A stretch of DNA of 42,130 bases from an uncultured Verrucomicrobiota bacterium (GCA_964520205.1 CAZFOA010000003.1:1-42130), one strand, 5' to 3'; shown: positions 19,587 through 36,270, counted from the stretch's first letter. Notes: generated by a model not told the origin, from the letters alone. Numbers and translations: made by a program.

Positions 19587-20299
19587 AATATCAGAAGATG
19601 CTGCTGGTCGTCGTCGTGGCCGGCCTGATGGCCGGCACGGCGGGTGTCTTGACCTGGCTCCGGTCGAACCAGAAGCTGGGCAAGCCGGGCATTAAGGCGA
19701 CGCCCATTCCCGGCAGTGTGGCCATGACCCTCGAGTTGCCGGCTCAAGTCCTGGATTTCACCTCCACCAATGTGCCGGAGCCCGAATTGGTCCTGGGTTA
19801 TCTGCCCAAGGACACCAGCTTTGTTGAGCGCCTGTACCAAGCGCCGGACGGCATGTTCGTCCAGGCGACGATCATATTGATGGGAGCAGATCGAACCAGC
19901 ATTCACCGGCCGGAAATGTGTTTGTTGGGCAACGGATGGCAGGCCAACGAGAAAACCGTGGTCAACATCCCCATTGGTGGTCCGCATCCGTATCCATTGC
20001 CGGTCATGAAATGGGTCATCACCCGGCAGCAGGATGGCCTGCGCGGGCTGTACGTCTTCTGGTTTGTAGCGGACAACGAAATGGCGACGCACAACGTTCG
20101 GCTCCAAATTGATCTGGTCCGGGACCTTTTGTTCAGGGGGGTATTGCAGCGCTGGGCGTACATGAGTTACTTCGCGGTCTGCGCGCCCGGCCAGGAGGAG
20201 GCCGCTTTTGAACGGGTGAAACAGCTCATCGCCGCTTCCGTGCCCGAATTCCAACTGCCGCCGCAGACCGCCGGGGCGCCCGAAGTCGCGAAACAATAA
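19583..20299 (+). CDS. Exosortase-associated EpsI-family protein
   Basis: Track ORF 19343..20299, trimmed to the ATG at 19583 (MKYQKMLLVVVVAGLMAGTAG, a signal/anchor). EpsI hallmark SIHRPEMCLLGNGW. Translationally coupled to the exosortase gene. Confidence 0.8.
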   Translation: MKYQKMLLVVVVAGLMAGTAGVLTWLRSNQKLGKPGIKATPIPGSVAMTLELPAQVLDFTSTNVPEPELVLGYLPKDTSFVERLYQAPDGMFVQATIILMGADRTSIHRPEMCLLGNGWQANEKTVVNIPIGGPHPYPLPVMKWVITRQQDGLRGLYVFWFVADNEMATHNVRLQIDLVRDLLFRGVLQRWAYMSYFAVCAPGQEEAAFERVKQLIAASVPEFQLPPQTAGAPEVAKQ

Positions 20300-20409
20300 T
20301 CCGGAATGATACGAAAACCCACATCCTTGAAAACCTCAGCGCCGCGGGATGGTTCCCCGAGCCGCCTTTTGTCGGCCGGCGATTCGATTCGCTGGAGCTA
20401 AGCTGAACT

Positions 20410-21813
20410 ATGCTGCGTCATGACCGGCTCATGCGGATGCAAGTCCATCAACTGGTGGATGCATGCCTGTTTGCGACCAGTTTTTGGCTGGCGTACGAGT
20501 TGAGGTCCAGCCCGTTCATCGTCGAGTTGTTCCGGCTGCAACCTTTCGACGCCCCGTTTGAAAGCTTCGTCTGGCTTTACGTGATTTTGATCCCCGCGGC
20601 CCCGCTCATCCTCGAAGCGCAAGGGTTTTATACGCGACCGGTGCTGTGCTCGCGGCGCACGACCGCCTGGCGGCTTTTCAAAGGATGCATCTTCACCACC
20701 CTGGTGCTCATCCTCCTGCTGTTCACGTTCAAGATGCTCCTGATGCTCATTGCGCGGTGGATTGTCATCTGGTTTGGCGGGATCAGTTTCATGCTCGTTT
20801 TCATCAAGGAAGAAGTGCTCCGCGATGTGCTTAGGAGCAAACTGGCGCAGGGACAGTTCAAACGGCGGTTCGTGCTGGTGGGAACGAAAAGTGAAACCGC
20901 CCGCATCCGCGGGGAAATGGAGGTCCGCGGAGCGAATGACTTTGATGTTCTGGCCGAGTTGGACCTCAACGACAGTTCCGTCGAACAATTGGTCCGGCTG
21001 CTGCACGAACATTCCGTCAACGGAGTGATCTTGAGCGCCAAACGTTCGTACTTCGAGCAGGTGGAGGCCGCCATCCGGGCGTGCGAATTGGAGGGCGTGG
21101 AAGCCTGGCTCGCGGTGGATTTTATCAAGACCCAGATTTCGCGGGCCAGCATCGATGATTTTTATGGCCAGCCGATTCTCGTGTTCCGCTCCGCGCCGGA
21201 GGCTTCGTGGGAAGGCGTTTTGAAGCAATTGATCGACTTTGTCGGCGCTTTCGTGCTGCTGGTTCTGGTCTCCTGGATGTTCGTGATTGTGGCATTGGTG
21301 ATCAAACTGACATCGCCCGGACCGGTGTTTTTCCGGCAACAACGGTCGGGGTTGAACGGCCGGCCATTCACCATTTTCAAGTTTCGCACCATGGCGACGG
21401 ATGCCGAACAGCGCCAGCATGAATTGGCCGCCATGAACGAAATGACCGGGCCGGTCTTCAAGATGACCAAAGACCCGCGGGTGACCCCGGTCGGTAGAAT
21501 CCTGCGCAAATTCAGCCTGGATGAATTCCCCCAACTTTTCAACGTGGTGCGCGGTGACATGAGCCTGGTCGGGCCGCGCCCCCTGCCGGTGGACGAAGTG
21601 AAGCGTTTCAACGACCTGGCCCATCGCCGGCGTCTGAGCGTCAAGCCGGGTCTGACCTGCTTGTGGCAGATCAGCGGACGCAACAACGTAACCGATTTCA
21701 AGGATTGGGTGCGGCTGGATCTCGAATACATCGACAATTGGTCGCTCTGGCTCGATCTCAAAATCCTGTGGCGGACCGTCCCCATCGTTCTGGCCGGGAC
21801 CGGGGCGAAGTGA
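20410..21813 (+). CDS. Polyprenyl glycosylphosphotransferase (large WbaP/EpsB-type priming sugar transferase)
   Basis: 467-aa ORF. N-terminal TM helices, then a central Rossmann-like segment ([10 protein letters not shown]). C-terminal Bac_transf core [27 protein letters not shown] ... [21 protein letters not shown]. Confidence 0.9.
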
Positions 21814-21824
21814 GCCACGCGGCA

Positions 21825-22769
21825 ATGAAAGCCAGGCAACCCACCTCCGTCGTGACCGGCGCGGCCGGGTTTCTGGGATCGCATCTGACCGACCTGCTCC
21901 TGGCGCGCGGCCACAAAGTCATCGGCATCGACAATTTCGTCACCGGCTCCGTGGACAACATCGCGCATCTGGGCGGCCATCGCGGTTTCAAGTTTATCCA
22001 GCAGGACGTGACCGAGTTTATTTTTCTCGACGTGCCGGTGGACTACGTCTGGCATTTCGCCTCGCCGGCCAGCCCGGTCGATTATCTGGAATTGCCGATC
22101 CAGACATTGAAGGTTGGCTCGCTGGGCACGCACAAGGCGCTCGGGCTTGCCAAGAACAAGCGGGCGCGGTTCCTCCTGGCTTCGACCTCGGAGATTTACG
22201 GCGATCCACTGGTGCATCCCCAACCGGAGGAGTATTGGGGTAATGTAAACACCATCGGCCCGCGCGGATGTTACGATGAAGCCAAGCGATTTGCCGAGGC
22301 CCTGACCATGGCATATCACCGGGAACACGGGGTGGCGACCCGCATCGTGCGCATCTTTAACACCTACGGTCCGCGGATGCGGCTTCATGACGGCCGCGTG
22401 GTGCCGGCGTTCATCAGCCAGGCGCTGAAAAACCAACGGCTGACGGTGTTTGGCAAGGGCCTGCAAACGCGCAGTTTTTGTTATGTGTCGGATCTGATTG
22501 AAGGGATTTACCGGCTGATGATGGGCGGTTACGCCCTGCCGGTGAACGTCGGCAATCCGACGGAGATGACCGTATTGGCATTCGCCAGGCAAATCATCCG
22601 CGCCACCGGTTCGCGCAGCAAAATTGCGTTCAAGCCGTTGCCGCAGGACGATCCCCGCCAGCGCCGCCCCGACATCAGCCGCGCCCGGAAATATCTGCGG
22701 TGGAATCCGCGCGTGGGATTGGCTGAGGGGTTGGTCCGGACCATCGATTACTTCCGGGCAAAAGTGTGA
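21825..22769 (+). CDS. UDP-glucuronate decarboxylase (UDP-xylose synthase), extended SDR
   Basis: Track ORF 21663..22769, trimmed to the ATG at 21825 ([21 protein letters not shown]). Motifs [20 protein letters not shown] (YxxxK) and [10 protein letters not shown] are typical of UXS/ArnA-decarboxylase relatives. Confidence 0.9.
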
Positions 22770-22957: not shown

Positions 22958-24826
22958 ATGCTGAATTCCAAATCATTTCTGGCAGTGGACTTTGGGGCGG
23001 GAAGTCTCAAACTCGCGGAGTTTGAAGTCAACGAAGCCGGGGGGTTGCGTCTGAAACAATACGCAATCAAGTCGCTGGGCGCCGAAGGCGCTCAGGAGTC
23101 CACCCGCGAAGCCACGATTCTCAAGGCGCTCCAGGAGCTGCTGGCCGAGAAGGGCATCAAAGCCCGCGAGGTCAATGTCTGTGCCCCGGGCTTTCACGTG
23201 TTTTCCAAATTCGTCAAGTTGCCGCCGGTGGACGCCGGCAAGGTGACGCAGATCATCCAATACGAGGCTCAGCAGAACGTGCCGTTCCCTTTGCAGGAAG
23301 TGGTTTGGGACTACCAGATCATGGGCTCGACCGCGGGCGGCGAACTGGAAGTGTTGCTCGTGGCCATCAAGGCGGACATTGTCGAAGGCTTGTTTCGGGT
23401 TGCCGACTCGGCCAAGCTTCGATTGCAGTTGGCGGACGTTTCGCCGGCGGCCCTGTGCAACGCGTTCCGCTACAACTATGGCGATCTGGAAGATTGCACC
23501 ATGCTTCTGGACATCGGGGCCAAGACGAGCAATCTCCTCTTTTTCGAGAAGGGCAAGGTGTATTCCCGGAGCATCAACCTGGGCGCCAATTCCATCACCC
23601 AGGATTTCGCCAACGAGGCAAAACTGAAATTCGATGCCGCCGAAAAGACCAAGATCGCGGAAGGTTTTGTGAGTCTGGGCGGCGCGTATGAGGAGCCCGA
23701 GAATCCGCATCAGGCGGCGATTTCCAAAATCGCGCGCCAGTTCATGACCCGCCTCCACATCCAGGTCAATCAGACCATGCAGTTTTATCGCGGGCAGCAG
23801 GGCGGCTCGGCGCCGCAACGCCTCTTCCTTTCCGGCGGCGCTTCCATCATGCCTTATACCGCTCAGTTTTTCGCCGAAAAACTGAATGTCCCGGTCGAAT
23901 ACTTCAACCCGTTCCGCAACGTGCAGATTGATTCGGCGGTCAATCTCGAGGAACTGGCCCGGGTTGCCCATTCCCTGGGCGAGGTGGTCGGCCTGGGCCT
24001 GCGCAACCTCGCGCACTGCCCGGTCGAGTTGAACCTGATCCCGGAAACCACCCGCCGGTGGCAAGTTTTCAACGAGAAGAAACCCTACCTGATTTTCACC
24101 GTGTTTAGCCTCGTGTTAGTCGTGGGCGCGATGGGTTTCCTGTTTCAGAATCTGGCGGATGTCAAGAACAACGAACTCCAAAACAACGTGAACCCGCGAC
24201 TGGCTCCGCTGCAGGCCAGCCAGGCTGAATTCAAGAAAGCTTCCGCGCAATTGCAGGCCGCCCAACAGGATTTGAATCAGTTGACCACCTGGACGGAAAA
24301 TCGCTACTTTTGGGCATCGGTCCTTTCCGAAATGCGCAGCGTTTTTATCAAGACCGAACGCATGGCGCGGGACAAGCTGAAGACGGATACCGGCATCTGG
24401 GTGGAGCAATTCTTGACCGTGGCGCCGCGCGCCTCCTCGGCTCCATCGGTCCCGGGACTTCCCGGCGGGCCCATCCAAACCGCGCCCACTGACCGGGCCC
24501 ATCGGGGCCGCTTCATGGGAGACGCGCCCGCGGCCCCGGCCCCGGCGCCCACGCCAGTTCCCGATGCCGCGCCCATAGCGCCCGCGGGCGGGACTCCCGG
24601 CGGCGGGATCGGGTTCATCACGCTCTTGTGCCGCGCGGTGAACTTGCAGAGCGTCGATGCCGCGGCCAACCAGACCATCATCTACACTCTCGAAAACGAG
24701 TTGAAGGCCGACCCGATGTTTGATCCCAAAGGAACCCAGTTGGCCCCGCAGATCAACACCGATGATGCCTCCGGCACGTTCACCTTCGGGGTGACGGTCG
24801 GGCTGCAGCATCCGATGAAGCTTTAG
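22958..24826 (+). CDS. pilM: PilM-PilN fusion protein (actin-like ATPase-fold PilM, PilN motif, TM anchor, coiled coil) with Pro/Ala-rich linker and C-terminal extra domain
   Basis: 622-aa ORF. Residues 1-355 are PilM/FtsA-like (FLAVDFGAGSLKLAEF, LLDIGAKTSNLLFF, LFLSGGAS). Then comes the PilN N-terminal signature ELNLIPE (nt 24026-24046). This is followed by a TM helix PYLIFTVFSLVLVVGAMGFLF, a coiled coil, the linker APAAPAPAPTPVPDAAPIAPAGG, and a ~70-aa tail. Confidence 0.8.
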   Translation: MLNSKSFLAVDFGAGSLKLAEFEVNEAGGLRLKQYAIKSLGAEGAQESTREATILKALQELLAEKGIKAREVNVCAPGFHVFSKFVKLPPVDAGKVTQIIQYEAQQNVPFPLQEVVWDYQIMGSTAGGELEVLLVAIKADIVEGLFRVADSAKLRLQLADVSPAALCNAFRYNYGDLEDCTMLLDIGAKTSNLLFFEKGKVYSRSINLGANSITQDFANEAKLKFDAAEKTKIAEGFVSLGGAYEEPENPHQAAISKIARQFMTRLHIQVNQTMQFYRGQQGGSAPQRLFLSGGASIMPYTAQFFAEKLNVPVEYFNPFRNVQIDSAVNLEELARVAHSLGEVVGLGLRNLAHCPVELNLIPETTRRWQVFNEKKPYLIFTVFSLVLVVGAMGFLFQNLADVKNNELQNNVNPRLAPLQASQAEFKKASAQLQAAQQDLNQLTTWTENRYFWASVLSEMRSVFIKTERMARDKLKTDTGIWVEQFLTVAPRASSAPSVPGLPGGPIQTAPTDRAHRGRFMGDAPAAPAPAPTPVPDAAPIAPAGGTPGGGIGFITLLCRAVNLQSVDAAANQTIIYTLENELKADPMFDPKGTQLAPQINTDDASGTFTFGVTVGLQHPMKL

Positions 24827-24828
24827 TT

Positions 24829-25728
24829 ATGTCCTGGGTCAAACGAAATCTCTATTTCCTCTTCAGCAGCCTGGTGGCGTTGGTGCTGCTCGGGTTGGCC
24901 GGCTACTATTTCTACTCGAACTGGAGCCTCAACAACAGTAACCTGGAAAAGCTCAACACGGCGTATGGGCTGCTGGATCAGCTGATCAAGAGCAATCCCC
25001 GGGACGAGCATGTTGACAATATCCTGACTGCCCAGCAGCAGTTGACAAACGTGGTCGCGCTGATCGAGAAGGAGAAGAAGTTCTTTTTGCGTGTCGCCCC
25101 GATCCCGGACTCGACCAACGGCGTGATCACGAAGGACGAATTCGCATCCGCGCTGCGCCGCACGATTGACGACTTGGGACACGCCGCGGCCGCCGCCAGT
25201 GTCACCTTGCCGCCGAAATATAACTTCTCATTTCAAGCCCAGCGGGACCTCACCGTGTTCGTCGAAGGCAGCCTGCCGCCTTTGGCCACGCAACTTGGGG
25301 AAATCAAGGCGGTTTGCAATGTGTTGTTCCAGGCCAAAATCAATTCGCTCGACAATCTGCGCCGTGAACGGGTGTCCGCCGACGACGCCCGGGGTCCGCA
25401 ATCGGATTACCTGGAAACAACGTCGGTGACCGGCCCAATGGCCGTGTTGACTCCCTACGAAGTGTCGTTCCATTGCTTCAGCCCCGAGCTGGCGGGAGTG
25501 CTGGCGGGTTTTGCCGGCGATCCGCATGGCTTTATTGTCCAGGCCGTCAACGTCGAATCGGCGGCCCAGGCCCAGGCGGGTTCGGATGTCCTGGGCGGGC
25601 CGGGGTATGCGGGCATGGCGCCCGCGGCGGCGCCGGCCACGAAGGGCGGCCTGCCGGTATTGCTGGATGAAAAACAACTGAAAGTCACACTGGTGTTGCA
25701 AGTGACAAAACTATTGCAGAAGAATTGA
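24829..25728 (+). CDS. N-terminally anchored periplasmic protein in the PilO position; Amuc_1100-like architecture
   Basis: 299-aa ORF starting 2 nt after the pilMN stop. TM anchor LYFLFSSLVALVLLGLAGYYF, then a helical region, an A/P/G-rich linker GGPGYAGMAPAAAPATKGG, and a terminal strand LKVTLVLQVTKLL. The family assignment is from recollection of the Akkermansia protein, not from a search. Confidence 0.6.
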   Translation: MSWVKRNLYFLFSSLVALVLLGLAGYYFYSNWSLNNSNLEKLNTAYGLLDQLIKSNPRDEHVDNILTAQQQLTNVVALIEKEKKFFLRVAPIPDSTNGVITKDEFASALRRTIDDLGHAAAAASVTLPPKYNFSFQAQRDLTVFVEGSLPPLATQLGEIKAVCNVLFQAKINSLDNLRRERVSADDARGPQSDYLETTSVTGPMAVLTPYEVSFHCFSPELAGVLAGFAGDPHGFIVQAVNVESAAQAQAGSDVLGGPGYAGMAPAAAPATKGGLPVLLDEKQLKVTLVLQVTKLLQKN

Positions 25729-25734
25729 CGCGCG

Positions 25735-26526
25735 ATGCAGTTTCTCAAGAAAAACTACGAAAAGGTTTTGCTTGGCCTGGTGCTGTTCGGGCTGGTGGCT
25801 GCGGTGGCTTTCCTGCCGTTCCTGGTCGAAGGCGAAAAGCAACGGCTGACCGAACTGCGCGACGGCATCACCAGCCGGAAGGTTCTTCCCATGGCGCCGC
25901 TGGATATGAAACGGGGCGAGGATGCCCTTGGACAAGTTGCCACGCGCCTGACGCTGGACCTTTCCGGAAACCATAAATTGTTCAACCCCGTCCGCTGGCT
26001 CAAAGGCCCGAACGGCCCCATCAAAATGCCCGCCGGAAGCGAGTTGGAGAAACTCGAAGTCACCCGGATGACGCCATTGTACCTGGTTCTCTCGCTCGAG
26101 TCGGTCAGTGTGTCTGATGCCTCCGGGGCGCGTTATGAGATCGTGGTGGAGCAACAGGCGTCGCCGAGGCAGATCCAGCGTGGCCGGCGCCCCTATTATG
26201 TGTCGATCAACGACAAAAAAGATCTGTTCGCCGTGCGGGAGGCCAAAGGACCGCAGAACAATCCAACGGCGCTGGTCCTGGAATTGAACGACACCGGAGA
26301 AACAGCTTCGATTTCCAAAGGCAATGACTTCAAGCGGGTGGACGGCTACACGGTCGATTTGAGATACGCGCCCGAAAACAAATCCTTCCTCGGCCGCCGC
26401 GCCGGCGACAAAATCAGCGTCGGCGGAGAGGAATATACTATTGCTAACATCACTCAGAACGAAGTAATATTGTCGGCCAGATCGAACGGTAAGAAATATA
26501 CAATCAGATACAACGCCGCACCTTGA
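25735..26526 (+). CDS. N-terminally anchored beta-rich periplasmic protein in the PilP position (hypothetical)
   Basis: 263-aa ORF starting 6 nt after the previous stop. Anchor VLLGLVLFGLVAAVAFLPFLV, with a strand-rich remainder. No named motif recognised. Confidence 0.6.
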   Translation: MQFLKKNYEKVLLGLVLFGLVAAVAFLPFLVEGEKQRLTELRDGITSRKVLPMAPLDMKRGEDALGQVATRLTLDLSGNHKLFNPVRWLKGPNGPIKMPAGSELEKLEVTRMTPLYLVLSLESVSVSDASGARYEIVVEQQASPRQIQRGRRPYYVSINDKKDLFAVREAKGPQNNPTALVLELNDTGETASISKGNDFKRVDGYTVDLRYAPENKSFLGRRAGDKISVGGEEYTIANITQNEVILSARSNGKKYTIRYNAAP

Positions 26527-26563
26527 ACCGTGCCGACGCTTTTTTGTGAACGTCACCGAACCC

Positions 26564-29365
26564 ATGAGCAAAGCAGTTACCACCCCACTCTGTATCCTTC
26601 TGTTGGCCGTCACGGCTCCGCTGTTGTCCGCCCAACCCAGCCCCACTGATGCGGCCGTGCAGGAGGCCGTGCGCCGGCAGGCCGACCGGATCACCCTGCG
26701 CCAGAAGCTGGAAGATGCTTCGGCGGCGGACCAAAGGCGCGATTTGCCGGCCGCCGCCAAACTCTACGACGCCTCCTGGGACCTGGTGGTCGGCATCGGG
26801 CCGGGCATCGAGTCGGAGCGGCAACAGACCGTTGACGGTTTGACCCTGGTCCGAATGGAACTGGCGCGCGCTGCGCTGCACCGCGGCGATCTGCCGGAGG
26901 CAAAAATCCAGGTTGAAGACGTGTTGCGGGTCAATCCCAACGACCCCATCGCGGTTGCATTCGAGCGCGACATTCTCAGGCTGATCGAGGAGCAACGCGG
27001 CCACGCCGCCAGCCTGGAGGTGCAGGAGCAGGTCCCCAATATCGCCAGCAACAAAGTCGCCGCGGCAACGCTCGTTCAGGATGCCAGGGTGTTCTATGAA
27101 CTCCGCCAATTGAATGAAGCCGATGCCAAGCTGAAGGAAGCCTTGAGGTTGGACCCGGCCAGTCAGGCGGCGGCCTATTATGGCAGCCTGGTCGAACAGG
27201 CCCGGTCCCAGCAAGCGATGACCCGGCGCATGATCGATACCGAGAAGAAAATGGTCCAGATCGAGCAGGCCTGGGAAACCCCAATCAAGCGCGAATCGTT
27301 GGCCATGCCCAATCCCATGGCGCGCACCAATCTCGTCTATACCGGCCAGGGACGGCAGGCGATTCTAAGCAAGCTCGACCTCATTCGCATCAACAGCGTT
27401 CTTTTTGACGGACTCCCGCTCAATGAAGTTGTGCGTTACCTGAGCGAGGAAGTCAAGAAACGCGACCCGGAGAAGAGAGGCATTAATTTTCTCATCAGCG
27501 CAAACCCCGAAACCGTTTCCACCACCCCGGTGGCGGCCACAGCCACAGGTACAGGGGCCGCCTTTGCGCCGCAGGCTCCAGTGCGGTTTGGCGCACCGGG
27601 AGGAGCACCCCAAATCGATCCCACCACCGGACTGCCCATTCAGGCTGCGGCGACGACCGAATCCGGGGATATTAATTCCGTCACGGTCACCATCAATCCC
27701 GGCATGACGGATGTTCGTCTGGCCGACGTTTTGGACGCCGTTGTCACAGTGGCCAATCATCCGATCAAATATTCGATTTTGGATTATGCGATCATCTTTT
27801 CCGTGAAAGGGCCGGAAGATCCGCAGCTTCACATCAGAACGTTCAAGGTGGATCCGAACACCTTCTATCAAGGGTTGGAAAGTGTGGGCGGGTTGAATTT
27901 CGGCGGCCTTGTCGGCAACGGGGGTAGCAGCGGTGGCGGTGGCTCCAGCGGCGGCGGCGGTGGTGGCGGCGGCGGTGGCGGCCAGGGCGGTGGCGGTGGG
28001 CAAAGCGGTCAAAACGGTATTTTGACGGTTCCTCGAGTCAACGTATCAGGGGGGTCATCTAGCGGCGGCGGTGGTGGCGGCGGTGGCGGCGGCGGTGGCG
28101 GCGGCGGCGGCCAGAGCGGCTCCGGACTGTCGTTTGTTACCCAAACAAACTCGATGGCGGCAGTGCAGGGCGCGGTCGTTACCTTCTTCCGGGCAGTGGG
28201 TGTGGAATTGGGCGCGCAAGCCGGGAAAAACGTTTTTTGGAATGATCGGGCGGGAACCTTGACCGTGCGTGCCACCTCTCAGGAGTTGGACATTATTGAA
28301 GCCGCCATTCAAACACTCGACATTGCTCCGCCGCAGGTGAACATCAAAGCGAAATTTGTGGAAGTGACCCAGAAAGACAGCCGGGCGCTCGGATTCGACT
28401 GGTATCTGGGAAATTACTTGATGAACAACGGCCAAATCGGGGCGCAGGCAGGCACCGCGCCGAGCTTCGCCGGCGCGCCCAGCGCGGGCAATCCGGAAGG
28501 AACCTTCCCGGGTAGCGCTCTCGCCGGCACCGCCCTTCCGCCGTCAACCACGGACGGGTTGTTGACCAGCGGATTGCGCAATGGCTCTGTGAATAACATC
28601 CCGGCGATCCCGGCCCTCGGCACGATCACCGGAATCCTGACGGACCCCCAGTTCCGGGTGGTGGTTCGTGCTTTGGAGCAACGAGAGAGCGCGGACCTTT
28701 TGAACGACAGCCAGGTGACCACGTTGAGCGGGCGCCAGACACAGATTCAAGTGGTGGACCTGGAAACCATCGTCACCGGCACCAGTGTCAATCAACAGTC
28801 TGGTGGCGGCGGTGCCGTTCCCAGCGGCGGGGCGACGACGCCAGGTACGGCCACCACGGCCATCACCTACACCACTTCCGTGTTTCCACTTGGTCCGACG
28901 CTGGATGTCATTCCTTATGTTTCAGCGGATGGCTACACCATTCAAATGACGATTATCCCGACCCTGGTTGAGTTTATTGGCTACGACAGCGTCGCCGGCC
29001 AGTTCCAAATCCAGGCCCAAAATGGGACCGGCGTCCCATTGACGGCGCAACTGGCGCTGCCGCACTTCCGCACCCGGCAGGTCACCACCAGCGCGATTGT
29101 CTGGGACGGCCAAACCATTGTGCTGGGCGGACTAATCTCGGAAAACGTCGCCAAGTTGAAGGACAAGGTGCCGGTGCTGGGCGACTTGCCGTTTTTGGGA
29201 CGCCTCTTCCGGAGCGAATCGAATATCTCGACCAAGCAGAATCTCGTGATTTTCGTCACTCCCACCATCATTGACCCGGCGGGCAATCGGGTGCATACGG
29301 ATGATGAACTTCCATTTGCGCAGAATACAATTCCGACGCAGAAGCCGCTTTCGCAGAATCCCTAG
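26564..29365 (+). CDS. Secretin (type II/III secretion system / PilQ family) with N-terminal TPR-like region and two poly-Gly/Ser tracts
   Basis: Track ORF 26546 (GTG)..29365. The ATG at 26564 gives the signal peptide MSKAVTTPLCILLLAVTAPLLSAQ. TPR-like helices follow (LHRGDLPEAKIQVEDVLRVNPNDP, YELRQLNEADAKLKEALRLDP). A secretin N-domain (ELDIIEAAIQTLDIAPPQVNIKAKFVEV) is present. The C-terminal secretin core is GRQTQIQVVD ... DKVPVLGDLPFLGRLFRSESNISTKQNLVIFVTPTII. Confidence 0.9.
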   Translation: MSKAVTTPLCILLLAVTAPLLSAQPSPTDAAVQEAVRRQADRITLRQKLEDASAADQRRDLPAAAKLYDASWDLVVGIGPGIESERQQTVDGLTLVRMELARAALHRGDLPEAKIQVEDVLRVNPNDPIAVAFERDILRLIEEQRGHAASLEVQEQVPNIASNKVAAATLVQDARVFYELRQLNEADAKLKEALRLDPASQAAAYYGSLVEQARSQQAMTRRMIDTEKKMVQIEQAWETPIKRESLAMPNPMARTNLVYTGQGRQAILSKLDLIRINSVLFDGLPLNEVVRYLSEEVKKRDPEKRGINFLISANPETVSTTPVAATATGTGAAFAPQAPVRFGAPGGAPQIDPTTGLPIQAAATTESGDINSVTVTINPGMTDVRLADVLDAVVTVANHPIKYSILDYAIIFSVKGPEDPQLHIRTFKVDPNTFYQGLESVGGLNFGGLVGNGGSSGGGGSSGGGGGGGGGGGQGGGGGQSGQNGILTVPRVNVSGGSSSGGGGGGGGGGGGGGGGQSGSGLSFVTQTNSMAAVQGAVVTFFRAVGVELGAQAGKNVFWNDRAGTLTVRATSQELDIIEAAIQTLDIAPPQVNIKAKFVEVTQKDSRALGFDWYLGNYLMNNGQIGAQAGTAPSFAGAPSAGNPEGTFPGSALAGTALPPSTTDGLLTSGLRNGSVNNIPAIPALGTITGILTDPQFRVVVRALEQRESADLLNDSQVTTLSGRQTQIQVVDLETIVTGTSVNQQSGGGGAVPSGGATTPGTATTAITYTTSVFPLGPTLDVIPYVSADGYTIQMTIIPTLVEFIGYDSVAGQFQIQAQNGTGVPLTAQLALPHFRTRQVTTSAIVWDGQTIVLGGLISENVAKLKDKVPVLGDLPFLGRLFRSESNISTKQNLVIFVTPTIIDPAGNRVHTDDELPFAQNTIPTQKPLSQNP
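27920..28126 (+). repeat. Two in-frame GGY/AGC triplet-repeat tracts encoding poly-Gly/Ser linkers inside the secretin gene
   Basis: Tract 1 (27920-28000) encodes GGSSGGGGSSGGGGGGGGGGGQGGGGG. Tract 2 (28049-28126) encodes GGSSSGGGGGGGGGGGGGGGGQSGSG. Both end in a near-identical ...GGCGGTGGCGGCCAG(G/A)GCGG, so together they form a direct repeat about 130 nt apart. Confidence 0.9.
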
Positions 29366-29431
29366 AAGTGGACCAATTTAGTAATAAGTTTGGACAATGT
29401 TCCAGGGCAGGTTAACATTAGAAAACGAATT

Positions 29432-30811
29432 ATGTTATTGTCGTCATTCGCCCGGAAGACGGTGATTTGCTGGTGTCTCGGGTTGGCAAGTCCCGCGGTT
29501 GTATTCGGTCAAACTGATTTCACTCCGTTCGCCGGCGAATATTCCATCGTTGGCAGCCTGCCGGGCGACCAGGTTCATCCTGGCGCTGCCATCGACGCGA
29601 ACGGCGGCTACCTCGTCTGGCAGGATAATTCGGTCAATACCAACGGACTGCGAATCCAGGCGGCGCGGTTGAACAGCAATTTCACCACCCTTTCCAACAT
29701 CGTTGTCAGCGCCGTCGCCAAGGTGAAAACCACCGGCAACCAGGAAAAGCCACAGGTGGCCTTGCTGCAAAACGGGGGCGCGGTCATTGTCTGGCAGGGA
29801 GGCAAACCCGGCCTGCAGCAGATTTATGCGCGCTTTCTCGGAGCCAACGGCGCTTTCCTTGCAAAAACGGATCTCCGGGTCAGCACCCATACCAAAAACA
29901 GCCAAAGCTACCCCCAGGTGGCGACCCTGACCGATGGCAGCGTGGTCATCGTGTGGTCGAGTGACGGACAGGACGGCAGCATGCTTGGGGTTTTCGCCCG
30001 GCAGTTTTCCGCGGCAGGCAAGCCTCTGGGCCTCGAGTTCCAGGTCAACCAGACGAGTCTCTACAACCAACGCACCCCCGCGCTGGCCGCGCTGGCCAAT
30101 GGGAACTTCGTGGTCGCCTGGATTTCCGAATTGCAGCGCAGCGGCGGCAGCGTGGGCAGCGTGGACGTTTACGCGCGTATTTTTAACGGCTTGGGCGCCG
30201 CTGTTACCGGCGAGTTCCCTGTCAATACCAGCATCATCAACATTTGCGCCAACCCCTCGCTGGCGGCTTCGCCCCAGGGTGGCTTCGCGGTGGCCTGGAG
30301 CCAGAACGACAATGCGGTGGTGCCCACGGCTCCGATCCCTTCCGCCTATAATTCATCCGGTATAACAATTCCTTCGACCGCAATTGCCTCGACTTCGCCG
30401 TCCACGAACGGTTGGGATGTGTTCGCGGCGTTCTATGACGCCACCGGCTCCAATACGACCGCTCCGTTCCGAATGAATCAATATACCTACGGAGACCAGT
30501 TTGGACCGAAGATCAGCGCGCTGGGATCCAATTACATGGCGGTCTGGACCAGCCTCAGCCAGCCCGATCCCAATACCGGTGTCGTCGACCACTCCGAAGG
30601 TGTTTTTGGCCAGTTCATCACCGCCGGCGGCGTCCTGGCTTCGGCGAATGATTTGCACGTGAACACCACCACCCTCGGACGACAAGTCCAGCCAGTCGTC
30701 GTTTCCGATGGCGCCAGCCGCTTCCTCGTGGTGTGGTCGTCTTTGGTCACCGCCCCCATTTTCAATTTCGACCTTTTTGCCCAACAATATTCGCAATCCG
30801 GAGGTCAATGA
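29432..30811 (+). CDS. Exported protein built of seven ~55-aa repeats (predicted 7-bladed beta-propeller-like)
   Basis: Track ORF 29390 (TTG)..30811. The ATG at 29432 gives the signal peptide MLLSSFARKTVICWCLGLASPAVVFGQ. The recurring unit has four parts: P-x-V/A-A-x-L, G-G-x-V-V-V-W, [I/V]-[F/Y]-A-[R/Q]-[F/I/Y], and G-x-x-x-x-x-E/D-F/L-x-V-N. It occurs 7 times, e.g. GAVIVWQ..IYARFL, VVIVWSS..VFARQF, FVVAWIS..VYARIF, FLVVWSS..LFAQQY. Confidence 0.75.
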   Translation: MLLSSFARKTVICWCLGLASPAVVFGQTDFTPFAGEYSIVGSLPGDQVHPGAAIDANGGYLVWQDNSVNTNGLRIQAARLNSNFTTLSNIVVSAVAKVKTTGNQEKPQVALLQNGGAVIVWQGGKPGLQQIYARFLGANGAFLAKTDLRVSTHTKNSQSYPQVATLTDGSVVIVWSSDGQDGSMLGVFARQFSAAGKPLGLEFQVNQTSLYNQRTPALAALANGNFVVAWISELQRSGGSVGSVDVYARIFNGLGAAVTGEFPVNTSIINICANPSLAASPQGGFAVAWSQNDNAVVPTAPIPSAYNSSGITIPSTAIASTSPSTNGWDVFAAFYDATGSNTTAPFRMNQYTYGDQFGPKISALGSNYMAVWTSLSQPDPNTGVVDHSEGVFGQFITAGGVLASANDLHVNTTTLGRQVQPVVVSDGASRFLVVWSSLVTAPIFNFDLFAQQYSQSGGQ

Positions 30812-30814
30812 TTT

Positions 30815-32191
30815 ATGCTGCGACTGTTTCAACGAACGTTCCTGGCCCTGGCGATGGCCGGGATGGTTCATTCCGCATCGGCTTTCTCCCTGACGGGTCC
30901 ATTCGCTACTTGGGAAACCGCGGCGCTCGGCTATAGCCCTGGAGGAGTAGGTTTTGATATCGGCGGGCCGATGAATCTCGGCGAGGGATACCGGTGGAAT
31001 GTCAAGACGATGACCTACGGATTCACCAAGTCCTTCCAGGATTACTTCGGACAAAGAGGGATTGACGAGGTCAATAAAGCTTTTGCCATCCTCAATGGCC
31101 TCCCGCCGGTCTCAAGGATGAGCCAGACTCTCTCGGAGTTTCCCCAGGACACTAGAGGTATCAATATGCAGGCATTTTCTTTGGGGTTGTTTGATCTAAA
31201 GACGGAGGCCTTGGGATTGTTGATCAATCAGCTCGGCGTTGCCGATTCGACGCGTTACGTGTGGACGCTGCGGAGTCGCGCAACCCCGGCTGGTGCCACC
31301 AATTATGTGGTGGTCATGCGGAACTTCGATCCGGTCACCTGGAATCCATCGCCATACGTCAACGGAGTGTTATACACTTATACCATCGGGGAGTTCGGAC
31401 CGGTAGTGCGATTTACCGACGCGGTTGAATCCACGGTCGATCCTTTGGCGCTGGGGTTCAATACAGCATCGCACATTGACCTCAACGGTAATATCAACAT
31501 CCCTGCTGGATACTTCCCCGGCGTGTATTACACCGGCCTGACGCGTGACGACGTGGGAGGACTGCGCTACCTTTTGAGCAAGAAGCTGCTCAATGTTGAA
31601 AACCTGCCCACCAACATCATCGGCGGAGCGTCCTCGCCCTGGATGCCGGTCGGTGTATTGGCAACAAACACCATCGTCAGAATCGCCATGCGCCCGGGGG
31701 TTGACAAAATCGCTTTCAAGCAATTGAAATACTACGGATTTTTCCCCGGGTTTACCAACGTTTACACGGACGTTTATGTGGTCAACGGCCACTCTTTTTC
31801 CCAACGAGTCCAGGACGTCCAGATCCTCCAGCCGGACATCGTTTTTACCGCCGGGGACTTCGGCGTGGATGGCAATGGAGGCATACCTTTCCTGACCTCC
31901 AGGACGCCTGCCGCAGCCTGGGCCAATAACAGCAATATCCAAGACAACACGCCGGCGGTCGGCGAAGTCGATGGTCCGGGCGTCGTCCAGCCAACGATTA
32001 TTATCGGATTTTCCAATGTCGGGCCTTACTTAGCGAATAGTTTTCCCGGGTTTATGAATCAATTCAACCCTGCTTCCTCTTTTGGCGGTTGGGCTGCGTT
32101 TGACGGCTCGGCGAATCCGCCGTTCATTTTTCCCAACGGCGCTTCCATACAAGATTTGCAGAACAGCATCTTGAACGGCGGCGGACTCTAG
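30815..32191 (+). CDS. Exported hypothetical protein (no recognisable family)
   Basis: 458-aa ORF whose ATG lies 3 nt after the upstream stop. Signal peptide MLRLFQRTFLALAMAGMVHSASA. Even composition across the whole length and no competing ORF in another frame. Confidence 0.7.
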   Translation: MLRLFQRTFLALAMAGMVHSASAFSLTGPFATWETAALGYSPGGVGFDIGGPMNLGEGYRWNVKTMTYGFTKSFQDYFGQRGIDEVNKAFAILNGLPPVSRMSQTLSEFPQDTRGINMQAFSLGLFDLKTEALGLLINQLGVADSTRYVWTLRSRATPAGATNYVVVMRNFDPVTWNPSPYVNGVLYTYTIGEFGPVVRFTDAVESTVDPLALGFNTASHIDLNGNINIPAGYFPGVYYTGLTRDDVGGLRYLLSKKLLNVENLPTNIIGGASSPWMPVGVLATNTIVRIAMRPGVDKIAFKQLKYYGFFPGFTNVYTDVYVVNGHSFSQRVQDVQILQPDIVFTAGDFGVDGNGGIPFLTSRTPAAAWANNSNIQDNTPAVGEVDGPGVVQPTIIIGFSNVGPYLANSFPGFMNQFNPASSFGGWAAFDGSANPPFIFPNGASIQDLQNSILNGGGL

Positions 32192-32202
32192 GAGCGAATT
32201 TC

Positions 32203-35200
32203 GTGAAGAGAATTATGAAGCGATTGTTACTTTCAGGTGTCCTGAGTCTGGCGCTGTCTCCGTTCGCCGCGCTGTTGGCGCAGTCGACGAACGTCTATAT
32301 CAATTCCGGCTCCGTTAGCTTCGCGATTGATGCGGTTCCGATTGATGCGGTGACGTTCATCAATTCCGGCACCTTTAGCGCCATTAGTCTCCAACCCTAC
32401 GAAACGTTCGATACGCTTAACTTCACCAATAAGGGCACCGGCACCATGAACGGCATTCCCGGTTTTTGGTTCGATGATTCTCCGTCGCGTACCGGCCAGC
32501 GCCAATGGTCGGCGAATTTCTTCAACGACAATAACGGCGTGGTTACGGCAACCAGTTTCGCTGATTTTGGAATATTAGTTACTGGTTTTTCTGTCAACAT
32601 GCAGAGCAGTTATCTCCAGATCTGGGCAACTAATATCGTCAACTACGGAACGTTCAACGTTGGGGCGGGAGGAGTGATTCAGATGACGGGTGACAACGTC
32701 GATCTTAAACAGGGTGTATTTGATGTGACCGCGCTTGCCGGGGTGGGCAGCGTGATTCTGACCGCTACGAACCAATTCTCCCCGGACACGTCCGTCTATG
32801 ACGTCTACTGGGCTGCAGCCAATTTTACACCCTTGCCGCCACCACTCGTGTTGGATACCGCGGCGATCTGGGATGGCACCAACGCCACTGCGCCGTCCAT
32901 CTCCAGTCCGCCCGCAGGGCCGCCTCCCATTCCCATTTTAGGGTTTTCATTCGTCCCGACCTACGCCGATTCCTGGAGTAATTACGTCACCACTGCGGCC
33001 ATCTCGGTCACCAACGTTCCCAATAACAACCCGATGACGGTCACTCTGGTCACCAACATGACCAAGGAGGCGGTGTTTGTGTCCGCCCCGGCTTTCGTTA
33101 CCGTGACATCACGGTTTTCACACCTCGGCATAAGCAATTTCAATGACATCAATGTGTTGCTGTCCATGCCGTTGACCAACTCGATCAACCGGGTGATTGG
33201 CACCAACTACATTTACTTTCAGGATCTGCTGGCGAACCAGGCTGCGGTAGGCTTGGTGCCTAACAGTCTTACACCCGACACATTCCGTCCCACCAATTAC
33301 CTGGTGGACCGACTGCCTCATGCCACGATTTTCGTGCCCACAGTGACGAGCAGGAATGGTATTCTTATCACCAATCCCCCGTCGGGTTTTAGCGGCAAGG
33401 GAGTTCCGGAACCCAACTTTTTCCTCGAATCCGGCAATATCTCTTTCGTTACGCCGTCCAATGTCGTGAGCTCCGACACGGTTCAGCCGAGCACCGTGGT
33501 GAGCGCGGGTGCCTTTGCCGCTTATGCCGCTTTTCTCGACAACGTGGCTTCCCGGCCCCCGCCCGTCGCCGGCGGCACCATCACGAATCTGCCGGGCAGC
33601 ATACGAATTGCCGCGGTGAACCTGGATATGACCGGTGCCAAACTGCGCGCCGAGGGGCAGGTTTCGATCACGGCGGAGAATTTGATTTCGAGCACCAACG
33701 CCTCGATTGATTGTGAAAATCTCAGTTATGAACTCGGTTCCAGCTCCGGTAACTTGGTGGTGCAAAATCTGGCCAGCATCAAGGCGGGACGGCTTCGTGG
33801 GGAGATACGCGCCTGGAGCGCCACTTGGACCAATGCGGCGAATGTGGTGATTCCAATCAATCTCGACACCAATGGCATCCCAGTTCCGCTGACGAACGGG
33901 GTGTCGATGGGATGCTACGCCTTGATCCTCGACGCCTCGGGGCTGCTCAATGCTCTGCAGGTATCCCTCTATAATCTGATCCTGCACAGCACCCATATTA
34001 CTGTGAACGACGACTTGACCGTGATCCAGTCGCTGTTGATCGATGGCCAGACCTTCACGCTCAACGGAGGCATCACGATTCCAGGGTTTTTCCCGCCGGC
34101 GGACCCGATTAATAACGTGTTATTTCCGGGTGTTCCGCTCCAGAATTGGACGGGCACCAACGCGCCGACACTCGCGTTGTTTACGAATAACGGCGCGTTT
34201 TTCATCTATAACGAGGCGCATTTCGGAGATGACCGCCCGCTGCCTTACGCTGTCTTGGTCAACTCTGGAAATATTATAGCCTCCGGCATCAAGGTGAACA
34301 GCACCTACTTCGAGAACGACGGCAATTTGATTGCGCAGCCGGGGACGTTGATCATCAATTGCGGTTCAGGCAAACTGCAGAACAGTACGAATACTTCCGG
34401 TAATTTCGCCAAGTTCACCGCCGGCAGCCTGCAATTCAGCAACAGCGCCGTTCTCGCCGGCGACTCCCTGAGTTTCAGCGTCACCAACCGGTTCACCGAC
34501 GGCGGGTCGTCCAACCTCTTCCAGGCGATGAATGGGATTAATCTCCTGACGAAGCCGCAAACCGGAGATTTGCTGGGCAGCACGTTGCTGAGCATTGCGC
34601 CCAGCACTGTTATTGGCAAGACCGTCACCCACACGTGGGCGGGTGAAGACCGCGGGGCGAACCCGGCCGGTTACTACAACAACGCAGCCGTCGGCACGCT
34701 CACCTTTAATGCCTTCAACGCCAACTCGGTATTTTCCTTTGCCGGCACGGCGACGGCTCCGGGCAGGACCAACGGTCTTTACGTGGATGTGCTCGATCTC
34801 AGCGGGCTGAATTCTACCAATCAACTTCAGATCAACCCCAACCTGGTGATCTATTTCGCCGCCGCAAAAGTCAATTTTACGCCGCCGACGAACAGTTTCG
34901 GGCTGCCACAACAGCCGGAAGAGTTTCTGAACGGCCAATTGGGCGGCCATCTGCGGTGGGTTTCGTCCTTCGCCGGTCCGGGCAGCTCGACGAATGTGGT
35001 GATTGGCGGCCAGACCAACACAGTGAATCGCGCGCTGGCGGGCAGCCATATTACGACCAACCTGCAAACGGCTCCGCTGGTCGTCACAATAAGCGGAAGT
35101 GGAACCATTACTCCCAACAACAACGGCAAATCGCTGCTGCTCGGCCAAACATACGGAATGATCGCCTCGCCGGCATCCGGATCAAAGTTCATTGGCTGGA

Positions 35201-36270
35201 CGATCGGTTCCTCGAACACGACTTCGCCTCAGTTGACGTTCGTGATGCAAAGCAATTTAACTATCGTCGCCACGTTTACGTTCGCTCCCGCCGCCGCCTC
35301 CTTCAGCGGGCTGTTTTATGAGACGAACGGAATCGAGTTCCTGAAGTCGGGGGCCGTCACCCTGACCACGACCAAGGCGGGTAATTACACCGGCAACCTG
35401 CAAATCGGCGCCAAACGCTATCCGTTCAGCGGGCTGTTTAACAGCAGCGGCACGGATACCCGGCCGGTGCCCAACAGCGGAGGTCTCGTGCTGCAATTGC
35501 AGGCGGGTAACGACCAGATCCTCGGCACGGTCAGCAACGCGCTCTGGACCGCCAGCCTCCAGGCCGACCGCGCGGTCTTCAATTCCCGGACGAACAAGGC
35601 AACTGCGTTCGCCGGCAGGTACACCCTCATCTTCCCGGGATCCAGTGACCCGGCCGATACGAACAATCCGCAAGGGGATGGCTTCGGCACCGTGACGGTG
35701 AACACCTCCGGCCAGGTCGCGTTAAGCGGGACGCTCGCCGACGGCACCAAGATTTCACAGACCGCAACGCTTTCCGGAGACGGCTTGTGGCCGCTTTATG
35801 TTCCGCTCTACAGCGGCAAGGGCCAGTTGTTGAGCTGGCAAACTTTCGCGATCACGGTTGACCAGGATATCAGCGGGCTGTTCAGTTGGATCAAGCAGAC
35901 CAACACCGCCGCCAAGCTCTACCCCAATGGCTTCAGCTTTGAGAACACCTCGGTCGGTTCGGCTTACAATCCGCAGCTGGTTCCGGTCACCGGCTTTACC
36001 AACGCCAATGTGCTGTTAACCGGCGGAAACCTGGCCGGACCGATTGCCAATACGGTGACGGTTACCGCCAAGAACAAAGTGATCAATGTCAGCGGGAGCA
36101 AACTGACGCTGACTCTGACGCCGTCGCAGGGTTTGTTCAAAGGCAGCGTGCTCAATGCGAACACCGGCAAGTCCGTCAGTTTCACCGGCGCCCTTTTGCA
36201 GAAACAGCTCACCGGGTCGGGTTATTTCCTCGGCACAAACCAGAGCGGGCATGTCTCCTTCAGCCCGTAA
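32203..36270 (+). CDS. Giant exported protein (1355 aa), beta-helix-like N/T/S/G-rich region plus one InlB-B-repeat-like domain
   Basis: GTG at 32203 (alternative ATG at 32215). Signal peptide MKRLLLSGVLSLALSPFAALLAQS. Long Asn/Thr/Ser/Gly-rich strand-like sequence. Segment 35071-35283 (VVTISGSGTITPNNNGKSLLLGQTYGMIASPASGSKFIGWTIGS...LTIVATFT) fits the divergent InlB B-repeat pattern. No C-terminal sorting signal. Confidence 0.8.
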   Translation: MKRIMKRLLLSGVLSLALSPFAALLAQSTNVYINSGSVSFAIDAVPIDAVTFINSGTFSAISLQPYETFDTLNFTNKGTGTMNGIPGFWFDDSPSRTGQRQWSANFFNDNNGVVTATSFADFGILVTGFSVNMQSSYLQIWATNIVNYGTFNVGAGGVIQMTGDNVDLKQGVFDVTALAGVGSVILTATNQFSPDTSVYDVYWAAANFTPLPPPLVLDTAAIWDGTNATAPSISSPPAGPPPIPILGFSFVPTYADSWSNYVTTAAISVTNVPNNNPMTVTLVTNMTKEAVFVSAPAFVTVTSRFSHLGISNFNDINVLLSMPLTNSINRVIGTNYIYFQDLLANQAAVGLVPNSLTPDTFRPTNYLVDRLPHATIFVPTVTSRNGILITNPPSGFSGKGVPEPNFFLESGNISFVTPSNVVSSDTVQPSTVVSAGAFAAYAAFLDNVASRPPPVAGGTITNLPGSIRIAAVNLDMTGAKLRAEGQVSITAENLISSTNASIDCENLSYELGSSSGNLVVQNLASIKAGRLRGEIRAWSATWTNAANVVIPINLDTNGIPVPLTNGVSMGCYALILDASGLLNALQVSLYNLILHSTHITVNDDLTVIQSLLIDGQTFTLNGGITIPGFFPPADPINNVLFPGVPLQNWTGTNAPTLALFTNNGAFFIYNEAHFGDDRPLPYAVLVNSGNIIASGIKVNSTYFENDGNLIAQPGTLIINCGSGKLQNSTNTSGNFAKFTAGSLQFSNSAVLAGDSLSFSVTNRFTDGGSSNLFQAMNGINLLTKPQTGDLLGSTLLSIAPSTVIGKTVTHTWAGEDRGANPAGYYNNAAVGTLTFNAFNANSVFSFAGTATAPGRTNGLYVDVLDLSGLNSTNQLQINPNLVIYFAAAKVNFTPPTNSFGLPQQPEEFLNGQLGGHLRWVSSFAGPGSSTNVVIGGQTNTVNRALAGSHITTNLQTAPLVVTISGSGTITPNNNGKSLLLGQTYGMIASPASGSKFIGWTIGSSNTTSPQLTFVMQSNLTIVATFTFAPAAASFSGLFYETNGIEFLKSGAVTLTTTKAGNYTGNLQIGAKRYPFSGLFNSSGTDTRPVPNSGGLVLQLQAGNDQILGTVSNALWTASLQADRAVFNSRTNKATAFAGRYTLIFPGSSDPADTNNPQGDGFGTVTVNTSGQVALSGTLADGTKISQTATLSGDGLWPLYVPLYSGKGQLLSWQTFAITVDQDISGLFSWIKQTNTAAKLYPNGFSFENTSVGSAYNPQLVPVTGFTNANVLLTGGNLAGPIANTVTVTAKNKVINVSGSKLTLTLTPSQGLFKGSVLNANTGKSVSFTGALLQKQLTGSGYFLGTNQSGHVSFSP

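Follow-up and report, generated by a model that had tools for sequence, protein, structure and literature searches.

A divergent Amuc_1100-family protein with a PilO-like fold in a secretin gene cluster of a Limisphaerales/Pedosphaera-type Verrucomicrobiota genome

Here we analyze a 42,130-nucleotide stretch of DNA (CAZFOA010000003.1:1-42130; called the window below) from an uncultured Verrucomicrobiota bacterium (GCA_964520205.1), in which an open reading frame (ORF) at positions 24829-25728 on the + strand encodes a 299-amino acid protein. This protein is homologous to Amuc_1100 of Akkermansia muciniphila and has a PilO-like fold with a single transmembrane segment; its gene stands in the Akkermansia gene order, and across the phylum such genes adjoin a PilM-like gene. 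We consider it likely, with a probability of about 0.8, that the protein is a divergent member of the Amuc_1100 family and serves as a bitopic (N-in/C-out) inner-membrane subunit of the PilO/GspM type in a secretin machine. Amuc_1100 is a widely studied probiotic effector whose native bacterial job is unsettled, and the window shows a member of its family within a conserved four-gene envelope machine.

Homology to Amuc_1100 and a PilO-type fold

A preliminary description of the window, made from the sequence alone, had likened the ORF product to Amuc_1100. The ORF is as described there: it opens with ATG, encodes 299 amino acids and closes with TGA, and its translation contains all four of the peptide segments that were quoted (NLEKLNTAYGLLDQLIKSNP, TPYEVSFHCFSPELAGVLAGF, GGPGYAGMAPAAAPATKGG and KQLKVTLVLQVTKLL). 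It starts 2 nucleotides past the stop codon of a 622-amino acid PilM-like ORF and ends 6 nucleotides ahead of a 263-amino acid ORF. Among 8000 candidates scored, 711 homologues were found at E<=1e-3, the best of them, other than the protein itself, at 68% identity, and a full hidden Markov model scan of 1.84 billion cluster representatives (50% identity) yielded 1587 at E<=1e-3, including 508 at E<=1e-30. A chance ORF can thus be dismissed. When 28 relatives are aligned, 35 columns are invariant. Relatives at 51-58% identity already carry the NCBI name 'Amuc_1100 family pilus-like protein', and precomputed database annotation places PF28028.1 on the identical protein cluster (P0002) and on all 120 relatives among the matches listed.

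For comparison with authentic Amuc_1100, we used a 317-amino acid ORF from a single-contig genome of 2,664,102 bp, which was found with the NCBIfam model NF038287 over 301 genomes of the phylum. This ORF scores 300.6 bits on the Amuc_1100 model, its neighbours match the Amuc_1099 and Amuc_1102 models, and it contains exactly the two strings, TPMPLEIAFQGDRESVLKAMN and EQVFVQVSLNLVHF, that the preliminary description had quoted for Amuc_1100. NF038287 also matched the 299-amino acid protein (E=1.5e-12, 47.6 bits), the alignment covering residues 1-245 and model positions 1-248 of 326. When a profile of 28 window-type sequences was compared by hhalign with a profile of 9 Akkermansia-type sequences, each of which scores 220.9-369.9 bits on NF038287, the two aligned over 238 columns with a probability of 98.1 and E=9.9e-14, at 15% identity. 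The alignment spans the anchor, the helical region and the globular domain and sets LTPYEVSFHCFSPELAGVLAGF opposite the PMPLEIAFQGDRESVLKAMNAI stretch, bearing out the segment correspondence that had been proposed.

The AlphaFold2 (AF2) model of the protein (predicted local distance difference test, pLDDT, 80; predicted template modelling score, pTM, 0.64) pointed in the same direction. In a Foldseek search of the PDB, ranks 1-10 were all Amuc_1100 (6LAD, 6LAF and 6KNY; E 1.4e-8 to 5.5e-8), with target-normalised template modelling scores of 0.70-0.81, the value of 0.81 being that to the core domain 6LAF_A. Since the Amuc_1100 crystal structures are without the transmembrane region, this match is independent of the anchor. 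The profile and structure matches are both significant, so the proposed resemblance to Amuc_1100 is supported, and an absence of similarity is not what we found. After Amuc_1100, Foldseek returned PilO structures with probabilities of 0.94-1.00, namely Pseudomonas aeruginosa PilO (2RJZ, E=1.3e-3; 5UVR, 9e-3) and the Myxococcus xanthus PilO in 3JC8 (3JC8_Oa, 8e-3). Amuc_1100 has itself been described as structurally similar to PilO/PilN (bioRxiv 10.64898/2025.12.30.696933).

A clear hit to the canonical PilO family, which the preliminary description had named as one finding that would speak against an Amuc_1100 relative, did not appear. Pfam at E<=10 gave no PilO, PilN or T2SSM match for the 299-amino acid protein or for Amuc_1100, and only noise (DpnII, GSCFA) for the former; a genome-wide search with PF04350 did not report the window ORF, its sole match being one of E=0.04 on another contig (C154). 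Because there is no Pfam PilO, PilN or T2SSM match, we place the protein outside the PilO sequence family, despite its PilO fold and PilO position. The Foldseek matches to PilO, the order of secondary structure elements in the AF2 model and the single transmembrane segment agree on a PilO-type fold with bitopic topology.

Hydropathy and the AF2 model place the one transmembrane helix at residues ~8-29 (24850..24915, + strand, as for all features below), a stretch of ~22 residues that holds the sole 19-residue hydropathy window above 1.6 in the protein. K5 and R6 stand ahead of it, within a conserved motif, M-S-W-V/I-K-R-N, that lies directly N-terminal to the helix, on the cytoplasmic side; M1, W3, K5, R6, N7 and L8 are invariant in the 28 relatives. 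We looked for a lipobox and a prepilin motif at the N-terminus and found neither, and the sequence predicts that the anchor stays uncleaved. Residues 2-55 form one continuous helix in the model. The periplasmic helical region (24916..25194), which comprises helices to residue 55, at 64-83 and at 102-122 according to DSSP on the AF2 model, pairs in the hhalign alignment with the helical region of Amuc_1100.

The core domain (25273..25560; pLDDT 84-95), which contains TPYEVSFHCFSPELAGVLAGF and carries the Foldseek match, has the order alpha 149-168, beta 173-180, beta 205-216, alpha 218-230 and beta 235-244, followed by beta 284-295. As modelled, this order is the double alpha-beta-beta arrangement of PilO, with the last strand supplied after a disordered linker. 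The linker (residues 245-283; 25561..25677) is rich in Ala, Pro and Gly, and its pLDDT lies below 50 over residues 248-278; in the alignment it is short in the window lineage and up to ~100 residues longer in relatives. The C-terminal strand (residues 284-295, KQLKVTLVLQVT; 25678..25713) completes the second alpha-beta-beta unit in the model, with a mean pLDDT of 89 over residues 281-290, and its motif DEKQLKVTL is conserved among relatives. Amuc_1100 (6KNY, 6LAD, 6LAF; NF038287; PF28028) likewise combines an anchor, a helical region, a two-fold alpha-beta-beta core, an Ala/Pro-rich linker and a terminal strand, which in Akkermansia reads GKEQVFVQVSLNLVHF and follows that protein's own A/P linker. 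The two also have in common the N-terminal motif W-[IV]-x-x-N (W-I-x-x-N in Akkermansia).

PilO of type IVa pili (PF04350) is, like the window protein, predicted to be bitopic, with a coiled coil and a double alpha-beta-beta domain, and is encoded after PilN and before the secretin. The window protein differs from it in a longer helical region with extra helices and in the disordered linker that interrupts the last alpha-beta-beta unit.

Two cysteines of the core domain deserve mention. In the window-type family, C163 (25315-25317) is nearly invariant and C216 (25474-25476) is mostly conserved; Akkermansia Amuc_1100 has neither. As the two sit on neighbouring elements of this domain, they might form a periplasmic disulfide.

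The gene cluster and its distribution in the phylum

The preceding gene (22958..24826) encodes a 622-amino acid Amuc_1101-like fusion of PilM and PilN. Residues 1-350 form an actin-like PilM domain (Amuc_1101_fam, E=1.5e-148; TIGR01175, E=1.6e-42; PF11104, PilM_2, E=2.3e-39), after which come the sequence CPVELNLIP (NL[IM]P), a transmembrane helix, a helix of ~110 residues and an alpha-beta-beta domain. CPVELNLIP is kept in 30 of 31 relatives examined and resembles the short N-terminal motif known from PilN of type IV pilus systems. The AF2 model of residues 351-622 (pLDDT 81) shows an alpha-beta-beta-type domain, the course of which is broken by a disordered Pro/Ala loop. Its top Foldseek match was Thermus thermophilus PilN (4BHQ, E=0.02, probability 0.99), followed by the GspL-type periplasmic domains of XcpY and EpsL. 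The fusion, by which the cluster differs from type IVa pilus genes, shares its topology with the type II secretion protein GspL, in which one polypeptide likewise consists of a cytoplasmic actin-like domain, a transmembrane helix and a periplasmic ferredoxin-like domain; next to it, the 299-amino acid protein would be a GspM-like bitopic partner. By contrast with GspM and GspL, the window proteins have no T2SSM or GspL sequence match, and the cluster has no GspE, GspF or GspG genes.

A word R-Y-G occurs in the family consensus of both the PilO-like and the PilN-like disordered loops (25561-25677 and ~24400-24560 in the window). The window's own PilO-like loop is short and without R-Y-G, and its PilN-like loop reads RGRFMG.

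Downstream, in the Amuc_1099 or PilP position, lies the gene for a 263-amino acid bitopic protein (25735..26526). Its similarity to Amuc_1099 is confined to the N-terminal K-x-NYEK-x-LL motif and the transmembrane segment (BLASTP E=4e-4; hhalign probability 86 over 29 columns). Neither Pfam nor NCBIfam gave a match for it, and its family profile found nothing among PDB sequences. The NCBIfam model Amuc_1099_fam was tried as well and set aside: it did not match this neighbour, and its matches in the genome were short repeat-like stretches in unrelated large proteins. The fourth gene (26546..29365) encodes a 939-amino acid Amuc_1098-like secretin (Amuc_1098_fam, E=1.2e-100; Pfam Secretin, E=8.3e-31) with weak tetratricopeptide repeat (TPR) matches in its N-terminal part.

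Given an Amuc_1101-like, an Amuc_1100-like, an anchored and an Amuc_1098-like product, the gene order 1101-1100-1099-1098 is reproduced in this tightly spaced cluster: in both organisms the Amuc_1100-type gene lies between the Amuc_1101-like PilM fusion and the genes for an anchored protein and an Amuc_1098-like secretin. Correspondence of the neighbours to Amuc_1101, Amuc_1099 and Amuc_1098, suggested in the preliminary description as a check, therefore holds for the first and the last and extends only over the N-terminal anchor for the Amuc_1099-position gene. Its phrase 'complete operon' does not apply, as the cluster contains no pilin, ATPase or platform gene. Amuc_1102, the pilin-like MUL2A protein, was sought in the genome by its protein sequence and by NCBIfam NF042424, and no match was obtained.

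Three large proteins of 473, 458 and 1355 amino acids are encoded after the secretin (29390..36270). They have no family match except one InlB-B-repeat domain in the 1355-amino acid protein. Among the 80 related loci described below, most of the longer ones of the subdivision 3 type have these three genes behind the secretin gene. They are absent from the Akkermansia locus, in which dephospho-CoA kinase and Rho come next after the secretin; the window has its kinase gene after the three extra genes. The idea that the 473-amino acid protein is the counterpart of the gene after the Akkermansia secretin was rejected, as the Akkermansia gene codes for Rho and the two are unrelated.

The window makes up one entire contig of a metagenome-assembled genome (MAG) of 3.68 Mb that is 98.5% complete. 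The GC content of the window is 54-62%, and the closest loci belong to MAGs that carry the labels Limisphaerales, Pedosphaera or Verrucomicrobia subdivision 3, several of which were sampled from bog, palsa or peat. Since these are its nearest relatives, the genome is not Akkermansia, and the earlier impression of a GC-rich, non-Akkermansia genome was right; it belongs to the same class as the Akkermansia-type genomes and to a different family. Unlike the host of Amuc_1100, a gut mucin degrader, the host of the window protein is thus a Limisphaerales/Pedosphaera-type bacterium, and signalling through host TLR2 presumably has no bearing on its protein.

The pair of PilM fusion and Amuc_1100-like gene was present in each of 80 related loci. 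The genes recur in the order priming sugar transferase, epimerase, PilM-PilN, Amuc_1100-like gene, Amuc_1099-position gene, secretin and three large proteins; the flanking genes are present and the downstream order is constant wherever the contig reaches and similarity is detectable. At the level of the phylum, the Amuc_1100_fam model matched in 226 of the 301 sampled genomes and 122 of 149 genera, only 18 matches lying above the cut-off, and Amuc_1101_fam matched in 265 of the 301. Among the matches listed for both models, the two lay on one contig and no more than 700 bp apart in 105 of 105 genomes. A match in 226 of 301 genomes, always beside a PilM-like gene where checked, argues for a structural, PilO/GspM-like role that is older than any host association. 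A 2026 paper reported that the MUL2 locus is conserved in Akkermansiaceae, often also in other Verrucomicrobiales and to a lesser degree in Chthoniobacterales, and that Methylacidiphilales lack it (PMC13174399).

Two of the loci, L083 and L085 (CAMAUY010000016.1 and CAMDJH010000005.1), come from MAGs labelled 'Akkermansia muciniphila' and encode a window-type protein with 33-35% identity to that of the window. L085 also has the three extra downstream genes, which the A. muciniphila reference locus is without. The labels of both MAGs are probably wrong.

A probable subunit of a secretin machine

We envisage the following arrangement. The transmembrane helix and the long periplasmic helix of the 299-amino acid protein would pair with their counterparts in the PilN-like half of the upstream fusion. 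Dimerisation with the PilN-like domain would involve the protein's two alpha-beta-beta units, of which the second receives its last strand from the C-terminus, past the disordered linker. This pair, together with the 263-amino acid bitopic protein as an analogue of PilP or GspC, would connect the cytoplasmic PilM module to the outer-membrane TPR-secretin. The inner-membrane location, the heterodimer and the link to the secretin are what we infer from fold, topology and gene order. The 299-amino acid protein would then be a structural part of a Verrucomicrobiota-wide secretin machine, represented in Akkermansia by the MUL2-type cluster, and not a host-specific effector.

Several observations weigh against this reading. 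A pairwise BLASTP comparison of the 299-amino acid protein with authentic Amuc_1100 was not significant (E=14), and searches of PDB sequences by phmmer and by hmmsearch with the 28-sequence profile found neither the Amuc_1100 chains nor any other relevant match. The score of 47.6 bits on NF038287 is far under the 180-bit curated naming cut-off, so the equivalog-level threshold is not reached; we regard homology to Amuc_1100 as well supported and the protein as too divergent for equivalog-level naming. For the partner protein, the Foldseek E-values behind the PilN-like assignment are weak (0.02-0.07), and hence the assignment rests on fold, motif and topology together; hhalign of the PilO-like against the PilN-like family aligned the transmembrane and coiled-coil region only (probability 74.5). 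The protein in the Amuc_1099 position showed no demonstrable similarity to PilP or GspC, its family profile finding nothing among PDB sequences. Finally, A. muciniphila Amuc_1100 has been recovered from outer-membrane-enriched fractions, and the literature calls it an outer-membrane protein (PMC10688800). Because of this recovery, experiment does not yet agree with an inner-membrane location, although co-fractionation with the secretin complex could explain it. In the literature that we searched on Amuc_1100 and PilN, we did not find an inner-membrane location of Amuc_1100 discussed.

The alternative that survives best leaves the fold and the complex as they are and assigns the machine another task: it would be a type II secretion-like exporter or a glycan-uptake device, in which the 299-amino acid protein, as the GspM equivalent, serves the three large downstream proteins. 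We regard this as plausible, if somewhat against the odds. The GspL topology of the fusion, whose periplasmic domain also matches XcpY and EpsL, fits it, as do the lack of a pilin in the cluster and of a detected Amuc_1102 homologue in the genome, and the recurrence of the three large proteins after the secretin. In Akkermansia, moreover, MUL2 has been reported as needed for mucin acquisition and proposed to mediate attachment 'similar to a secretion system', and a glycan-uptake device has been proposed for it. However, the cluster holds no ATPase, platform or pseudopilin genes, though 12 T2SS-E-type ATPase matches occur elsewhere in the genome; the sequence affinity of the fusion is with PilM (the TIGR01175 match above) and not with GspL; and the downstream proteins would be putative substrates at most.

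It is improbable that the 299-amino acid protein is instead an outer-membrane or surface-exposed 'pilus-like' component, such as an adhesin or fibre, whose N-terminus is a cleaved signal peptide. Reviews do place Amuc_1100 in outer-membrane-enriched fractions and credit it with an N-terminal secretion signal (PMC10688800), and the family bears the name 'pilus-like protein'. In the window protein, however, the hydrophobic stretch runs on into a helix predicted to residue 55, with no cleavage-type motif, lipobox or prepilin motif, and the protein has the fold of the inner-membrane assembly protein PilO rather than that of a pilin or a beta-barrel. The title of PDB entry 6KNY reads 'without transmembrane region', and in a phylum that is mostly free-living the gene stood beside the PilM-like gene in every one of the 105 genomes checked.

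That the protein is simply the canonical PilO of an ordinary type IVa pilus, a PilO-family member and not one of a separate family, is suggested by its position after PilM-PilN and before the secretin and by the Foldseek probabilities for PilO, but is very hard to reconcile with the empty Pfam search even at E<=10, with Amuc_1100 structures matching about five orders of magnitude better than PilO, and with the presence in the same genome of a separate, more canonical cluster.

This second cluster (contig C68, 445-7768; locus L114) encodes a PilX_N-like protein, PilM, a PilN-like protein, a PilO/GspM-like protein, a small protein and a secretin. Its PilM is a separate polypeptide (PF11104, E=2.4e-24), the PilN-like protein has 213 amino acids and starts MPIQINLLAE, the PilO/GspM-like protein has 197 amino acids and a weak T2SSM match, and the secretin has 580 amino acids; at Pfam thresholds, the PilN-like, PilO-like and small proteins gave no match. 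The hhalign comparison of the window family with the PilO-like protein of this cluster detected no profile similarity (probability 3). The window cluster is therefore a distinct second machine and not the organism's only alignment complex. Outside the window cluster, the genome has three further secretins.

The preliminary description had hoped that a homolog in this setting might reveal an ancestral structural role of the family. The idea of such a PilO/PilN-like role is already in the literature (bioRxiv 10.64898/2025.12.30.696933; PMC13174399), and both the PilO/PilN resemblance and the conservation of the locus beyond Akkermansia have been published. With the window protein, a family already known gains a new, divergent member, encoded in a locus of a known type, and the advance is incremental. 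As a speculation of rather less than even odds, the Amuc_110x module may be a distinct subtype of the type IV filament superfamily across Verrucomicrobiota, made up of a GspL-like PilM-PilN fusion, an Amuc_1100-type PilO/GspM-like subunit, an anchored protein in the Amuc_1099 position and a TPR-secretin. It would coexist with a canonical PilM/N/O/Q cluster in the same genome and, in subdivision 3, be dedicated to the three conserved large exported proteins; Amuc_1100 would be an inner-membrane subunit of this machine, its outer-membrane label and TLR2 activity being secondary. The machine may build a fibre, secrete the three downstream proteins or, as has been proposed for MUL2, take up glycans.

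Sequences flanking the cluster

The C-terminal module of the 1355-amino acid protein (35071-36270; residues ~957-1355), ~320-400 amino acids in length, recurs at 38-54% identity on at least 7 other contigs of the genome (C14, C28, C77, C243, C328, C84 and C122). It looks like a domain common to a set of paralogues, possibly with a sorting or anchoring function.

Directly upstream of the cluster, at 18615-22769, the window encodes an exosortase, a DUF3485 (EpsI-like) protein, the priming sugar transferase and the epimerase. The transferase-epimerase pair precedes the PilM-PilN gene in about half of the related loci, often wherever there is enough upstream sequence, and this recurrence suggests a lineage-specific link between exopolysaccharide genes and the secretin cluster.

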